A stretch of DNA of 13,080 nucleotides, from IMG/VR virus record IMGVR_UViG_2563366976_000005; one strand, 5' to 3'. The position numbers and the translations under genes were made by a program. Shown one piece after another: positions 6,315 to 12,097 of this stretch. Position 1 is the stretch's first letter; each line of letters begins with the position of its first letter. This stretch comes from a virus. Taxonomy: Duplodnaviria; Heunggongvirae; Uroviricota; Caudoviricetes. The notes below the pieces were generated by a model, which saw only the letters and a list, made by a program, of their open reading frames with translations, was not told where the DNA came from and ran no database searches.

Positions 6315-6991
6315 CGCCATTGCTCCCCAAATACAAAACCAATTTCAGCCAGTGCCTCGTCCATTTTTTCGATGAACTCCGGCACCATCTCGTCAAAACT
6401 CGCCATGTACTTTTCATCCCGCTCAACCACGACATAATGCAGGCCTTCACGCTTCATACGCGGGTCATAGTTGGCAAAGTACCAGGCATCTTTTCGCGTC
6501 ACCCACATGCTGTACTGCACCTGGGCCATGTAAGCCGACTTTATGGCCTCGAAACCACCGAGCCGGAACTTCATGAAATCCCGGGAGGTAAACGGGCATT
6601 TCAGCTCAAGGCCATTGCCGTCACTGCATAAACCATCGGGAGAGCAGGCGGTACGCATACTTTCGTCGCGATAGATGATCGGGGATTCAGTAACATTCAC
6701 GCCGGAAGTGAATTCAAACAGAGTTCTGGCGTCGTTCTCGTACTGTTTTCCCCATGCCAGCGCCTTAGCATTAACTTCCGGAGCCACACCGGTGCAAACC
6801 TCAGCCAGCAGGGTGTGGAAGTAGGACATTTTCATGTCAGGCCACTTTTTTCCGGAGCGGGGTTTTGCTATCACATTGTGAACTTCTGAAGCGGTGATGA
6901 CGCCGAGCCGTAATTTGTGCCACGCATCATCCCCCTGTTCGACAGCTCTCACGTCGATTCCGGTACGCTGCAGGATAATGTCCGGTGTCAT
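6311..6991 (-). CDS. exo: Lambda exonuclease (Red alpha)
   Basis: The 226-aa [68 protein letters not shown]... is lambda Exo by recall. Confidence 0.97.
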
Positions 6992-8150: not shown

Positions 8151-8357
8151 TTAGCGATTCAGGCCGTTACCGCGTCCGTCGAGAAAAACTTCCACGAGCA
8201 AATCACGGGTATAAGTGCGCTCGATGCCGCGATGCAGATAAAGCCGTCCGCGTAAATTAGCTGATGCAGTCCAGGTACCATCTTTGTGTTTGACCAGCAT
8301 TCCTGGCATGACCGCACCTCGATTAACGGTCTGCGTTCCGTAATGTTGATGAACCAT
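8151..8357 (-). CDS. KilR-like small protein (putative FtsZ-directed host-killing function), in place of lambda kil
   Basis: 68 aa from MVHQHYGTQ with a strong SD (gcAGGAGtttttATG). By recall it aligns along its full length with Rac KilR: MIAHHFGTD.., ..YIASANN..KLYI.., ..IKVFLGRDAGG... The ORF-track frame is open upstream to a TTG at 8561, but without an SD. Confidence 0.55.
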
Positions 8358-8578
8358 AAAAACTCCTGCCCGTAAGCTGGGCTGCTGAACATATAGAGAC
8401 TTCTGCGCGTATTCAGGCGGTGGATGGCCGCCGGTTGTCATAACTAAGTCGCCTCGTTGAAGCGACTGAGGTATGAAGTGTTGAGTTGATTTCAGCTGGT
8501 CACACCGACGTTCACGCGTCCGCTTCACCCCTCGCACTCCCCGAAGCCTGCTGAAATTCAAACTGCGGATCTAAGCGG

Positions 8579-8630
8579 TCATCGCAACGGTGAAACAGGT
8601 GGTTACCGTATCGTTGTGTCGTTGCGATGA
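8579..8630 (-). other. Long inverted repeat at the 5' end of the predicted pL transcript
   Basis: tcatcgcaacg (8579..8589) and cgttgcgatga (8620..8630) are perfect 11-nt complements around a 30-nt loop. The loop contains acggt/accgt and a second cgttg copy that allows alternative pairing. No U-tract follows. Confidence 0.5.
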
Positions 8631-8634
8631 ATTT

Positions 8635-8710
8635 ATTTAAAACTATAGTTGTTTTATCGTCAACAACAAAAGTTGTTTTGTCGGTTGTTTTAAATATAAC
8701 TGGTTGTATT
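8635..8710 (-). promoter_or_regulatory. pL / oL region
   Basis: The minus strand has TTGACG (8663..8658), a 17-nt spacer, then TTAAAT (8640..8635). The block GTTGTTGAC..AAAACAAC.ATAGTTTTAA is shared with pR. GTTGT/ACAAC half-sites start at 8648, 8663, 8672, 8684 and 8703. Confidence 0.6.
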
Positions 8711-8802
8711 TAGGATGGATTTATTTTGTGACTTGCATCGCATAGCGATAACTGAAGTGAGGTGTGGTGGTTTTTTGGACGGTATGAGTTATGAGGGGGA
8801 GG

Positions 8803-8830
8803 AAAAGAAAACCCGGCGCGGTTGCCGGGT
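8803..8830 (-). terminator. Intrinsic terminator after the lipoprotein gene (functional analogue of t-imm)
   Basis: The minus strand reads acccggc-aaccgc-gccgggt followed by tttcttttcc. The stem is 7 bp (8811..8817 with 8824..8830). Confidence 0.75.
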
Positions 8831-8837
8831 ATGATTA

Positions 8838-9218
8838 TCAGTCAGCCCAACCTGATTTCGAGTTTATTTGGGTTTCTGACATTGTGTATTTCTTAATCGT
8901 GTCATCGTTAAAAAGAATAGTAAGTTCTTTTTTCGTACCGTTCGTTCCATTATGGAATAATCCATAGAATGGAATAAAAGTGGTGCCATTAACTTTTACT
9001 TTTGCAAAGGCGTACTTCCAGATCTCGTTTCCACTGTCAGTATATGAAACAGCATCAGGAGAACCAAAGTAAGATTTAACCTCATTCTTGGTTGTTTTAC
9101 CTTCCTGAAGTTTAGACTGGACACTAATTTCAGTTTCATTTTTGAGTTGCTGGTTGCCTGAAGAAGCACACCCAGCCAATACAGATGCCATCATGGCAGC
9201 GATTAGGATTTTTCTCAT
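8838..9218 (-). CDS. Prophage-encoded lipoprotein, BamE/SmpA-OmlA (BLIP-fold)-like
   Basis: 126 aa. The signal peptide carries lipobox LAGC, and +2 is Ala, which predicts outer-membrane sorting. KLQEGKTTKNEVKSYFGSPD fits the motif common to BamE-like small lipoproteins. The gene is visibly AT-rich compared with its neighbours. It occupies the rexAB position between cI and pL. Confidence 0.7.
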   Translation of the reverse strand: MRKILIAAMMASVLAGCASSGNQQLKNETEISVQSKLQEGKTTKNEVKSYFGSPDAVSYTDSGNEIWKYAFAKVKVNGTTFIPFYGLFHNGTNGTKKELTILFNDDTIKKYTMSETQINSKSGWAD

Positions 9219-9447
9219 TTTATGTTTCCATTCATTATAATCAGAAACATCTTAACATAATGATTCGAAATAAAAACCGCTACGAGATAGGGGGACATTT
9301 TGCTGACAGTAGCAACAAATCTCAGCTAACAACGAGAATATTTACTGAAATATGCAAACAGATTTGGCGTTCTTATAGAGAATTTAGTGCAATATCTAAT
9401 CCGAGTGGTATAAACCTTAACCTTCGCTCCCTTAAGTCGTAGATAAA

Positions 9448-10137
9448 TTAACCATGCTTCCTGTACGTCTGCGGCATGCTTCCAATGACCTTACCGAATA
9501 TGAACACCCGGTTCATCTCGTCTTTCTCGATCGGGTCCCACGGCGAGTAGCTCTTGTTATCAGAGATAACCAGCAGCTTATCCTTCATCATTTGAAGACG
9601 TTTTACATGGGCAGTGTCGTCGTACAGAAACGCATAGATGCCATCACCGTCGAAAGATTTAACAGTGATATCAACGAACAGCAGGTCACCTGGTTCGATC
9701 GTCCCTGACATGCTGTCACCTCGCACGTTAATGATGCGGATATTTTCCGCCTTCCTGCCATCGAACATGTGACGAGCATCGTCAAACGAGTACTCAACCG
9801 AGCGTAGAACTTCTACAAACTCACGGTTGATTACACCTGGCCCGGCACTGACTTCTATATCAAGAACGTCAATTTTGAAGTATTTGGAATGGCTGACAGT
9901 TGATTGTATTGGTTGCACTGTACTGTCTGACATATTTCCAACGCCAGAAGATAACCATTCTGCGCGCACACCCAAAGCGTTCGCGATCTCCACGATTTTA
10001 GTTGTTTGGTTAGCTTTCCCTGTTTCGATTTTCTGAATAGCAGCCTGGCTAACCCCGACCAAATCCCCAAGCGCCTTTTGTGTAAGGCCTCGCGCTAATC
10101 TGGCTTCTTTAAGTCTTTCTGAGAGTGTTGTTTTCAT
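9448..10137 (-). CDS. cI: CI-type prophage repressor (N-terminal XRE HTH, C-terminal S24 LexA-like autopeptidase)
   Basis: 229 aa. The HTH is LTQKALGDLVGVSQAAIQKIETG. The candidate Ala-Gly cleavage site is in VSAGPG. The Ser is in GDSMSGT and the Lys in HVKRL. The gene is divergent from cro. No SD precedes its ATG. Confidence 0.9.
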   Translation of the reverse strand: MKTTLSERLKEARLARGLTQKALGDLVGVSQAAIQKIETGKANQTTKIVEIANALGVRAEWLSSGVGNMSDSTVQPIQSTVSHSKYFKIDVLDIEVSAGPGVINREFVEVLRSVEYSFDDARHMFDGRKAENIRIINVRGDSMSGTIEPGDLLFVDITVKSFDGDGIYAFLYDDTAHVKRLQMMKDKLLVISDNKSYSPWDPIEKDEMNRVFIFGKVIGSMPQTYRKHG

Positions 10138-10241
10138 AGATCAAATGTACAACCAAGGTTTTATTTCATCAAACGAAAATGGTTGTTGACTAAAAACAAC
10201 CATAGTTTTAATCTTGATTCGGATTAACCACGGAGGTTGTT
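10138..10241. promoter_or_regulatory. oR / pR / pRM divergent control region
   Basis: A perfect 9-bp inverted repeat, atggttgtt-N7-aacaaccat (10179..10203), overlaps pR -35 TTGACT (10186..10191). The pR -10 is taatct (10209..10214). Candidate pRM on the minus strand is TTGATG (10172..10167), 17 nt, then TACATT (10149..10144), which places the transcription start at or next to the cI ATG. Extra half-sites are ACAACC at 10149 and GGTTGT at 10235. Confidence 0.6.
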
Positions 10242-10472
10242 ATGAACCCAGCAATCAAAACAGCGATCAATATCGTTGGTTCACAAAAGAAACTAGGCGA
10301 TGCCTGCGAAGTTTCACAGCAGGCCGTCTATAAGTGGCTTCACAACAAAGCAAAGGTATCCCCTGAACATGTCGGCAGCATTGTTACGGCTACTGGTGGA
10401 GTTGTGAAGGCATACCAGATTCGCCCGGATCTTCCGAAGTTGTTTCCACACACCGAAAAGAACGCAGCTTAA
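10242..10472 (+). CDS. cro: Cro-like repressor, YdaS family HTH
   Basis: 76 aa with SD cggaggttgttATG. The pattern IVGSQKKLGDACEVSQQAVYKWL...TGGVV....IRPDL parallels Rac YdaS by recall. Confidence 0.8.
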   Translation: MNPAIKTAINIVGSQKKLGDACEVSQQAVYKWLHNKAKVSPEHVGSIVTATGGVVKAYQIRPDLPKLFPHTEKNAA

Positions 10473-10484
10473 ATTTCCATTTCA

Positions 10485-10497
10485 CGCTCTTTAACAA
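10485..10497 (+). promoter_or_regulatory. boxA element (nutR position)
   Basis: cgctctttaacaa matches the rrn boxA TGCTCTTTAACAA at 12 of 13 positions. It lies between cro and the CII analogue, where lambdoid nutR sites lie. Confidence 0.65.
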
Positions 10498-10541
10498 TAA
10501 GCAATCAACTTAACAGTCAATTCAAACTAAAGGAGTCAATT

Positions 10542-11081
10542 ATGCAACCACTTACATACCAACAGACTAGCGGATTTATTCCGACTGCGGTGATAAATCG
10601 TTCTCAAACAAAACAAGCTCCAGGCCACGAAAAAATCCGTGATGCCGTCCGCGCCTGGTCGGCTGTAGATAATCAGGATGTCGTTGCCGCACTCATTGTG
10701 AATGAGTATCGGGAGCAGGGCGACGGCACCATCGATTTCCCTGATGATGTCAGCCGTGCACGCCAGAAGCTGTTCCGCTTCCTCGATAACAAATTCGATT
10801 CTGAAAAATACCGAAATAACGTGCGTGAACTGACCCCGGCAATTCTGGCGGTACTACCGCTGGAATATCGCGGTTACCTGGTTGAGCAGGATAGCTTCAT
10901 GACTCGGTTGGCTGAAATGGAAAAGGAACTCAGTGAGGCAAAACAGGCTGTCATTCTCAACGCACCACGCCACCAGAAACTGAAGGAAATGAGTGAAGGT
11001 ATTGTGTCGATGTTTCGTGTGGACCCGGATCTGGCTGGTCCATTAATGGCGATGGTGACCACCATGCTGGGGGCAATATGA
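10542..11081 (+). CDS. YdaT-like protein (functional analogue of CII)
   Basis: 179 aa with SD aaaggagtcaattATG. VAALIVNEYREQG.. and LTPAILAVLPLEYRGYL parallel Rac YdaT (ANAITEEYLRQGG, LIPAILAILPRELRHRL) by recall. It sits in the cII position. Confidence 0.7.
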   Translation: MQPLTYQQTSGFIPTAVINRSQTKQAPGHEKIRDAVRAWSAVDNQDVVAALIVNEYREQGDGTIDFPDDVSRARQKLFRFLDNKFDSEKYRNNVRELTPAILAVLPLEYRGYLVEQDSFMTRLAEMEKELSEAKQAVILNAPRHQKLKEMSEGIVSMFRVDPDLAGPLMAMVTTMLGAI

Positions 11082-11167
11082 CAGGTTCAGAAATGGCGAA
11101 AGTCGGTCTGCGGGAACAGAACCGACTTTCAGGTGCAAATCGTAACACACTCATTGCGGGAGGAATT

Positions 11168-12097
11168 ATGGCAAACACTGCTGAGATATTCAATTTTCCA
11201 GTGCCGGATGCGGCACAAAAGGAGCCGCGCGTGGCAGATCTCGATGATGGTTATACGCGCATTGCAAATGAGTTGCTGGAAGCTGTGATGCTGGCCGGAT
11301 TAACACAGCACCAGCTTCTGGTCTTCCTGGCTGTCATGCGCAAAACATATGGCTTTAATAAAAAACTGGATTGGGTGAGCAACGAGCAACTTTCCGAGTT
11401 GACCGGGATATTGCCGCACAAGTGTTCTGCTGCAAAAAGCGTTCTGGTAAAGCGTGGGATTCTTATTCAGAGCGGGCGGAATATCGGCATTAATAATGTG
11501 GTCAGTGAATGGTCAACATTACCCGAATCAGGTAAGAAAAATAAAGTTTACCTGAAAGAGGTAAATTTACCTGAATCAGGTAAGAAAAGTTTACCCAAAT
11601 CAGGTAAAGGCGTTTACCCGAATCAGGTAAACACAAAAGACAAACTAACAAAAGACAATATAAAACCTTTTTCGTCCGAGAATTCTGGCGAATCCTCTGA
11701 CCAACCAGAAAACGATCTTCCTGTGGAGAAACCAGATGCTGCAATTCAGAGCGGCAGCAGGTGGGGGACAGCAGAAGACCTGACCGCCGCAGAGTGGATG
11801 TTTGACATGGTGAAGACCATCGCGCCATCAGCCAGAAAACCGAATTTTGCAGGGTGGGCTAACGATATCCGCCTGATGCGTGAACGTGACGGACGTAACC
11901 ACCGCGACATGTGCGTGCTGTTCCGCTGGGCATGCCAGGACAACTTCTGGTCCGGTAACGTGCTAAGTCCGGCCAAACTCCGCGACAAGTGGACCCAACT
12001 CGAAATCAACCGTAACAAGCAACAGGCTGGCGTGACAGCCGGAAAATCAAAACTCGACCTGACAAACACTGACTGGATTTATGGGGTGGATTTATGA
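11168..12097 (+). CDS. O: Replication initiator O (chimeric: novel N-terminal iteron-binding half, lambda-type C-terminal half)
   Basis: I chose the start MANTAEIFNF (SD gggaggaattATG) because it aligns with lambda O MTNTAKILNF. An in-frame alternative ATG at 11078 forms an ATGA overlap with the upstream stop. From about SSENSGESSDQPENDL to the end the protein equals lambda O by recall. Confidence 0.85.
   Translation: MANTAEIFNFPVPDAAQKEPRVADLDDGYTRIANELLEAVMLAGLTQHQLLVFLAVMRKTYGFNKKLDWVSNEQLSELTGILPHKCSAAKSVLVKRGILIQSGRNIGINNVVSEWSTLPESGKKNKVYLKEVNLPESGKKSLPKSGKGVYPNQVNTKDKLTKDNIKPFSSENSGESSDQPENDLPVEKPDAAIQSGSRWGTAEDLTAAEWMFDMVKTIAPSARKPNFAGWANDIRLMRERDGRNHRDMCVLFRWACQDNFWSGNVLSPAKLRDKWTQLEINRNKQQAGVTAGKSKLDLTNTDWIYGVDL
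11519..11630. repeat. ori: Replication origin iterons (five copies) inside O
   Basis: TTACCyGAAwsAGGTAA occurs at 11519..11535, 11548..11564, 11567..11583, 11591..11607 and 11614..11630. Each copy is internally palindromic (TTACC-N7-GGTAA). An A-rich tract follows at 11631..11670. The layout matches lambda ori, but the iteron sequence is different. Confidence 0.85.

Follow-up and report, generated by a model that had tools for sequence, protein, structure and literature searches.

What does a lone lipoprotein gene do in the part of a lambda-like prophage where lambda itself carries its exclusion genes? The question is raised by a 13,080-nucleotide stretch of viral DNA (IMG/VR record IMGVR_UViG_2563366976_000005; Caudoviricetes), here called the window, whose minus strand encodes a 126-residue lipoprotein between the cI repressor gene and the left operator and promoter (OL/pL). 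This cI-to-pL slot is a proven source of lysogen-expressed defence genes such as rexAB and bstA. The comparisons described here suggest that the lipoprotein is a reasonable candidate for protecting the lysogen at the level of the envelope. Three findings make the candidate well defined, namely strong purifying selection, a regulatory block carried along with the gene, and repeated capture of the family into two classic exclusion slots. The gene is a good and cheap experimental target. The family, with more than 1,300 sequence clusters, is already catalogued and uncharacterised. The hotspot is known, no new kind of system is involved, and as it stands the case holds no surprise for a specialist.

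A swappable cargo gene behind the repressor

The window contains a lambda-like prophage adjoining ybhC. Its minus strand carries, in order, int, xis, early-left accessory genes, exo, bet, gam, a kil-like gene (8151..8528), OL/pL, a terminator, the lipoprotein gene, a 229-bp spacer and cI. Beyond cI, the plus strand carries cro, a cII-like gene, O and P. The features that define the cargo are the following:

8838..9218, minus strand: lipoprotein gene of 126 amino acids, stop codon included (phrog_3135; RefSeq 'SEN1984 family lipoprotein')
9448..10137, minus strand: cI-type repressor with helix-turn-helix and S24 peptidase domains (Pfam Peptidase_S24 1.2e-18, HTH_3 5.4e-13; phrog_4)
8830..9448, minus strand: variable cargo cassette of 619 bp, from the cI stop codon to the common terminator (blastn against PhiR47_2)
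8640..8700, minus strand: putative OL/pL, approximate, with repeated AACAAC/GTTGTT operator-like sites and TTGACG-17-TTAAAT, read from the sequence by analogy with OR/pR at about 10170-10240

The lipoprotein gene follows directly downstream of cI on the same strand. A preliminary description of this locus had placed a single gene between cI and pL, and the open reading frame (ORF) at 8838..9218 is indeed the only credible one there. Two plus-strand ORFs, an antisense frame of 85 amino acids (9185..9442) and a frame of 58 amino acids (8791..8967), were rejected as genes, since they fall in unconserved spacer or overlap with the real gene and are annotated in no record.

The borders of the cargo are set by comparison with a sister phage. 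PhiR47_2 has the same cI and another cargo, and in blastn its homology to the window breaks exactly at 8829/8830 and at 9448/9449, so that the swappable unit is the 619 bp from 8830 to 9448. The GC content is 35-38% over 8850-9450, compared with 47-53% in cI and the Red genes, in agreement with the AT-richness noted earlier for the gene and its spacer. In PhiR47_2 (locus L014, 3239..4667) and in IdasGreatGrand (L015), two genes annotated as GevT toxin and GevA antitoxin lie between cI and the terminator. The cI proteins of both phages are 99% identical to that of the window (228 of 229 residues), and thus one immunity type circulates with at least two alternative cargoes. A literature search on GevT and GevA returned unrelated papers only. 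In E. coli STEC409 (L040, 4230..4922), the same lipoprotein cassette is found behind a hybrid repressor, which joins a different N-terminal helix-turn-helix to a C-terminal domain identical to that of the window cI.

The cassette is present in 69 of 5,426 complete E. coli genomes, and every copy is chromosomal and at least 99% identical. It also fills the slot in prophages of at least 10 further enterobacterial genera. The adjoining backbone stretch (8600-8829), which holds OL/pL and the common terminator, occurs at about 91% identity in roughly 1,450 of the same 5,426 genomes; no annotated feature covers 8600..8829 in any match listed among them.

The cI-N slot of lambdoid phages is a mosaic hotspot, occupied by rexAB in lambda and by bstA in BTP1, and its genes are transcribed from the repressor promoter (PMC8585504, PMC7067206). 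In the sense of Juhala and Hendrix, a moron separates genes that adjoin each other, or have homologues, in related phages without it, deviates in base composition, and has a promoter and a terminator of its own. As to the first two points, the lipoprotein gene is present or absent between homologous genes, with sharp borders against PhiR47_2 and IdasGreatGrand, and its GC content deviates. It is a genuine, well-delimited moron, a horizontally mobile cargo in a known hotspot. The proposal of a moron-like cargo in the rexAB slot therefore stands, with the GevT/GevA alternative of the sister phages as its counterpart.

The immunity region as a whole is 100% identical to that of Escherichia phage PhiR26_1, in which the lipoprotein ORF is annotated 'putative lipoprotein'. 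The paper on the PhiR phages contains no discussion of the gene. PhiR26_1 (L001/L027) also encodes PD-lambda-1, an OmpD-like porin, Bor, Lom and an omptin (9690..11192, 15616..16713, 18489..18782, 39522..40121 and 46781..47734), an unusually large complement of envelope-directed and defence morons.

The lipoprotein and its family

The protein opens with the signal peptide MRKILIAAMMASVLAG, followed by a cysteine:

9168..9218, minus strand: signal peptide and lipobox L-A-G-C (codons 14-17, 9168..9179), from sequence reading

Cys17 is the predicted lipidated residue, with Ala at +2 and Ser at +3. The lipobox pattern [LVI][ASTG][GA]C is satisfied by MRKILIAAMMASVLAG-C, which predicts a bacterial lipoprotein processed by Lgt, LspA and Lnt, and the lipid cysteine is invariant across 94 diverse relatives. 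Asp at +2 is the retention signal for Lol sorting in Enterobacterales. Because Asp is found at this position in none of the 94 relatives (86 have A, V, S, G or T), the lipoprotein is predicted to be sorted by the Lol pathway to the outer membrane. The preliminary description of a 126-residue lipoprotein with lipobox LAGC and Ala at +2 is thus borne out.

The protein belongs to phrog_3135, a phage protein family of unknown function. The hidden Markov model of this family aligned with it from end to end (E=2.9e-48), pairing residues 1-124 with all 114 profile positions, and was the sole match in PHROGs. An exhaustive HMMER search identified 1,332 clusters (50% identity) at E<=1e-3, 309 of them at E<=1e-10. 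The features conserved throughout the family are the lipid cysteine, a C-x-S-x-G-N segment directly behind it, G52 and P54, W67 and Y69, an F-I-P loop, and F103. The AlphaFold model, based on the 94-sequence alignment, is confident (predicted local distance difference test, pLDDT, 89.5) and has a BamE/BLIP-type fold in which the CxSxGN segment forms a strand. The earlier likening to BamE and BLIP, which was to be checked with Foldseek, is upheld by this model: the only near-significant matches in the PDB are BamE chains (E about 0.01-0.04). A fold search of BFVD returned only uncharacterised SmpA/OmlA lipoproteins from Pseudomonas phages.

Despite this fold, the lipoprotein is, to judge from its sequence, not a BamE orthologue. 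The two proteins are about 20% identical, the Pfam BamE model gives 21.8 bits, just below its gathering cut-off of 23.2 bits, no BamE model of NCBIfam matched at E<=1, and the family profile reaches BamE chains in the PDB only at E=0.02. BamE (SmpA/OmlA), the lipoprotein of the beta-barrel assembly machine (BAM), is encoded by a core gene, whereas the window lipoprotein is prophage cargo whose family has longer hairpins and its own CxSxGN and FIP motifs. At the level of the domain, the Pfam BamE model is matched by 80 of the 94 relatives, and Trp67 and Tyr69 of the lipoprotein align with the WFY motif of BamE. Of the 69 copies in E. coli, most are labelled 'outer membrane protein assembly factor BamE' by RefSeq. 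Because the protein fails the BamE sequence models, this label looks like systematic over-annotation from a domain-level match. A widespread RefSeq mislabel is thereby corrected, in that the prophage genes annotated as BamE are not BamE orthologues. In one recent genome (NZ_AP045758.1, 100% identical gene), RefSeq gives the name 'SEN1984 family lipoprotein' to the identical E. coli protein, WP_001226568.1. This name was taken from the RefSeq annotation; the NCBIfam release searched holds no such model. Membership of a well-characterised housekeeping lipoprotein family, which had been held to speak against the initial proposal, is not what was found: the family is uncharacterised and the BamE label applies at the domain level only.

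Other searches returned little. NCBIfam gave nothing above cut-off, and its sub-threshold matches (Ag473, TrsH, OsmE) are caused by the signal peptide. No similarity to Cor, Llp or Bor was detected, as the preliminary description had anticipated; PHROGs gives phrog_3135 alone, and the fold matches include no such structure. SEN1984 of Salmonella Enteritidis bears the same RefSeq family name and is likened to the window lipoprotein by name, length (378 nt length class) and predicted fold. A Phyre2 resemblance to BamE is the sole published remark on it (PMC10655114, PMC3198454). SEN1984 lies in the mobilisable and excisable island ROD21, whereas the window lipoprotein lies behind a phage repressor.

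Selection was assessed by comparing the window gene with 17 relatives from other genera. In the mature part of the protein, the proportion of nonsynonymous differences (pN) is 0.06-0.10 in most comparisons, and the synonymous proportion (pS) is 0.70-0.95. The mature-part pN rises to 0.17-0.20 for Buttiauxella and Serratia. Where it can be computed, the ratio of nonsynonymous to synonymous rates (dN/dS) is 0.036-0.05. Synonymous sites are saturated, and divergence in the signal peptide is unrestrained. Among prophages of the enterobacterial clade, the protein varies only in its signal peptide and at a few helix positions, and the sheet and the FIP loop are almost invariant. By these measures purifying selection on the mature protein is very strong, and its near-invariance points to a real function exerted on a conserved partner.

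Terminators, promoters and probable expression in the lysogen

The preliminary description saw in this locus a promoter, a gene and a terminator arranged as one self-contained unit. The elements that bear on this proposal are the following:

8803..8830, minus strand: intrinsic terminator closing the transcription unit of cI and its cargo, comparable to lambda t_imm (folding energy, dG, -14.1 kcal/mol; z -3.0)
9219..9263, minus strand: conserved 45-nt upstream block, candidate promoter and 5' leader (70-78% identity to relatives)
9226..9229, minus strand: Shine-Dalgarno sequence GGAA
9234..9239, minus strand: TATAAT, unconserved, 15 nt before the ATG
9249..9257, minus strand: extended -10-like TGTTAAGAT (TGnTAnGAT kept in cI-slot, xis-side and pre-tape-measure copies)
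9264..9447, minus strand: AT-rich spacer private to the cassette, without a convincing terminator (z -0.10)

The proposed architecture needs revision on two counts, the promoter hexamer and the ownership of the terminator. The strong terminator itself is real, with a hairpin of a 7-bp stem, six G-C pairs and a T-run, but it is not exclusive to the gene. It was rejected as a part of the mobile unit, as homology with PhiR47_2 continues through the whole hairpin; it is also common to IdasGreatGrand, and both of these phages carry the GevT/GevA cargo. Sequence comparison thus places the terminator in the common phage backbone. Relatives at other sites likewise have a terminator directly behind the stop codon.

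The perfect TATAAT is also present where it had been seen, but its role as a promoter does not hold. The hexamer occurs four times in the window against 4.8 expected by chance. At its position, relatives have TGCAAT, TGTAAT or TGTTAC, in which the critical A at -11 is absent. No usable -35 accompanies it in the window, and a promoter scan did not pick out this site. Transcription starting there would leave only about 8-9 nt ahead of the ATG, too short a leader to keep the GGAA Shine-Dalgarno sequence whole. The surrounding ATTATAAT (9234..9241) is its own reverse complement, which accounts for a promoter-like match on the plus strand (TTCTCA-18-TATAAT, 10 of 12 matches, 9212..9241) directed antisense towards cI. 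This antisense site is probably a by-product of AT-rich sequence.

A better candidate is found slightly further upstream. Identity between the window and relatives is 70-78% over the 45 nt that precede the ATG and 23-37% over the next 45 nt upstream. Because the block is conserved while the synonymous sites of the gene are saturated, it is under selection. It is found with the gene in the cI slot, on the xis side and before the tape-measure gene, often right behind a terminator, and is missing from 4 of 16 aligned loci, two of which abut cI. Its best promoter-like feature is TGTTAAGAT, which has the form of an extended -10; transcripts begun from it would have a leader of about 24 nt containing the GGAA ribosome-binding site. 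An own promoter of the family gene is therefore likely.

The window phage may also express the gene from the repressor promoters. There is no terminator between cI and the lipoprotein gene in the window, and the spacer, found in the phage collection in PhiR26_1 only, folds no better than shuffled sequence. Because no terminator follows cI, transcripts from pRM and pRE should read through to 8803..8830, as they do for rexAB. The relatives in Salmonella, Citrobacter and Enterobacter have a clear terminator 45-70 nt upstream of the start codon, and these insulated copies would thus need a promoter of their own. In the window phage, read-through from pRM appears at least as likely as an independent start. 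Expression of the lipoprotein gene in the lysogen is likely on this sequence evidence. No Rfam family was detected anywhere in the window.

Candidate roles in the envelope

The family recurs in two slots, one behind the repressor and one just before the tape measure. In the former, a cI-type repressor is encoded on the same strand and the relative is the last gene before the early-left operon. Relatives were located as follows, the species-representative scan having been made with a single protein and giving 12 loci:

Repressor slot: Salmonella phage S107
Repressor slot: all 8 Citrobacter and Enterobacter loci inspected, among which four different repressors occur
Repressor slot: 4 of 12 species-representative genomes
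Tail module, at or near the tape-measure gene: Klebsiella phage RAH1
Tail module, at or near the tape-measure gene: locus L019, 63% identity
Tail module, behind the tail assembly chaperone: locus L025, where the contig ends within the next gene, to which no family was assigned
Tail module, between DUF6246 and TMP_3: locus L034
Tail module, two genes upstream of a lytic-transglycosylase-domain protein, which we read as the tape measure: an E. coli phage-plasmid
Adjoining the integrase gene: Pseudomonas phage Lodos
Near an excisionase gene: a further position
Structural module: Alteromonas phage P24

Relatives are also present on 139 plasmids, of which 103 are conjugative, mostly from Burkholderia. 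The survey of homologues and neighbourhoods that had been suggested at the outset thus describes a family of mobile-element cargo with few chromosomal members. Its distribution indicates exchange among prophages, phage-plasmids and conjugative plasmids. Directly downstream of the lipoprotein gene, the prophages of Citrobacter, Enterobacter and Salmonella have a small ORF convergent with it (68-75 amino acids, no Pfam match; L006-L013, about 6410..6720; L002, 3923..4150), which has no counterpart in the window.

The reading that we favour, tentatively and at somewhat short of an even chance, is that a lysogen-expressed outer-membrane lipoprotein binds a conserved envelope component from the periplasm and protects the lysogen at the entry step. 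Transcription in the lysogen would occur either by pRM/pRE read-through via cI or from the gene's own -35-independent promoter at TGTTAAGAT, and transcripts would end at the common terminator. The lipoprotein would act as a small protein-binding module on the conserved component and would not be a functional BamE. An incoming phage would be stopped because its receptor is blocked from the periplasmic side, or because the periplasmic step of DNA delivery is blocked. The mode of action would resemble that of Cor, Llp or HK97 gp15 without relatedness to them. Superinfection exclusion by the lipoprotein is plausible in these terms.

The known systems provide both likenesses and differences. Cor (phi80, HK022, N15) and Llp (T5) are small phage lipoproteins that inactivate FhuA and serve as the model for the proposed mechanism. 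Like the window lipoprotein, they are predicted to face the periplasm from the outer membrane. Their genes, however, sit by tail or receptor-binding genes, and they show no sequence similarity to the window lipoprotein and are not among its fold matches. HK97 gp15 is a superinfection-exclusion moron located between the tail chaperone gene and the tape-measure gene (PMC3594210). Several relatives of the window lipoprotein occupy this same slot, and both proteins have chromosomal relatives outside prophages; gp15 is a YebO-like protein of the inner membrane, whereas the window lipoprotein has a different fold and is predicted to reside in the outer membrane. The genes rexAB, bstA and GevT/GevA (as annotated in PhiR47_2) share its position and strand relative to cI and are likewise bounded by a terminator before OL. 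They encode cytoplasmic or inner-membrane abortive-infection or toxin-antitoxin systems, in contrast to the single secreted lipoprotein of the window.

Several observations weigh against protection at entry. The literature searched gives no expression data and no phenotype for any family member, and offers only the remark on the fold of SEN1984 (PMC10655114). PADLOC matched 0 families to the lipoprotein at E<=1. An arms race with phage proteins would not be expected to leave the mature protein nearly invariant across genera, as it is; a conserved host target would account for this, and so would a housekeeping-like role in the envelope. Some relatives (40-50% identity) reside in ordinary chromosomal neighbourhoods that lack phage genes, so that the ancestral role is not a phage-specific one. 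In addition, the promoter is assigned from sequence conservation, and 2 of 7 newly aligned cI-slot copies (L029, L030) abut cI without the upstream block.

A broader form of the same proposal, which we regard as rather unlikely, makes the lipoprotein the founding member of a widespread envelope-exclusion family, in which a BamE-fold lipoprotein binds a conserved periplasm-facing component and stops phage or conjugative DNA. The target would possibly be BAM itself or a conserved turn of a receptor, and the carriers across Proteobacteria would be prophages, phage-plasmids, conjugative plasmids and islands. If true, this would explain both the extreme conservation and the recurrence in the rexAB and gp15 slots.

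The fold and the range of carriers also suit an unlikely but distinct alternative, in which the lipoprotein is an orphan immunity or inhibitor protein that neutralises a toxin or enzyme acting in the periplasm, such as a bacteriocin, an effector of type VI secretion or contact-dependent systems, or a phage tail-associated lysin. The lysogen would thereby be protected in conflicts with other bacteria or with phages. Among the predicted immunity proteins for lipid-targeting polymorphic toxins, among them one with a colicin-M-like domain, membrane-anchored BamE-like proteins are described as the most widespread (PMC12419801). The fold neighbours favour this explanation, and the family is carried by many kinds of mobile element, the conjugative plasmids among them. 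A BamE-like immunity protein, however, would be marked by an adjacent cognate toxin and by rapid evolution. No toxin gene adjoins the lipoprotein gene in the window or in any inspected locus, and its dN/dS of about 0.05 or less departs from the fast evolution described for such proteins. The same two differences, a missing neighbouring toxin and slow rather than rapid evolution, set it apart from BLIP-type inhibitors and from BamE-like immunity proteins such as BtiO of Bacteroides.

Comparably improbable is a role as a Bor- or OsmE-like factor in host fitness or envelope homeostasis (serum, osmotic or envelope stress, colonisation) with no effect on phage entry. The existence of non-phage chromosomal relatives argues for such a role, and strong purifying selection across genera suits a host-directed function. 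The nearly identical phage PhiR26_1 holds the envelope morons Bor, Lom, OmpD-like porin and omptin as well, and a protein with the same RefSeq family name is encoded in the Salmonella virulence-associated island ROD21 (PMC10655114). On the other hand, both recurrent slots are best known for exclusion and defence genes (PMC8585504, PMC3594210). The literature also reports no phenotype for SEN1984 or its relatives.

That the lipoprotein is a BamE mimic, docking on BAM in place of or beside BamE and altering outer-membrane protein assembly (for instance with lowered receptor levels or changed RcsF signalling), is highly improbable: the RefSeq label and the alignment of Trp67/Tyr69 with the WFY motif favour it, but it is opposed by the failure to match the NCBIfam and Pfam BamE models and the weak reach of the family profile to BamE chains described above, by long beta-hairpins and a conserved FIP loop that BamE lacks, and by the alignment of unrelated residues with what we take to be the BamD-binding N-terminal segment of BamE.

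The remaining observations concern the region on the other side of the terminator. Between the kil-like gene and pL, no gene for an N-type antiterminator can be made out (8151..8640, minus strand). The long kil ORF (start at 8561 or 8528) opens with the arginine-rich RLRGVRGVKRTRERR, fused in frame to the Kil domain (phrog_294, residues 60-135), and presumably RLRGVRGVKRTRERR resembles the RNA-binding motif of lambda N. GenBank annotates the ORF in a 125-amino-acid form, and RefSeq annotates only a Kil of 68 amino acids. Just downstream of pL, a perfect 10-bp stem is formed by CAUCGCAACG...CGUUGCGAUG (about 8575-8629).

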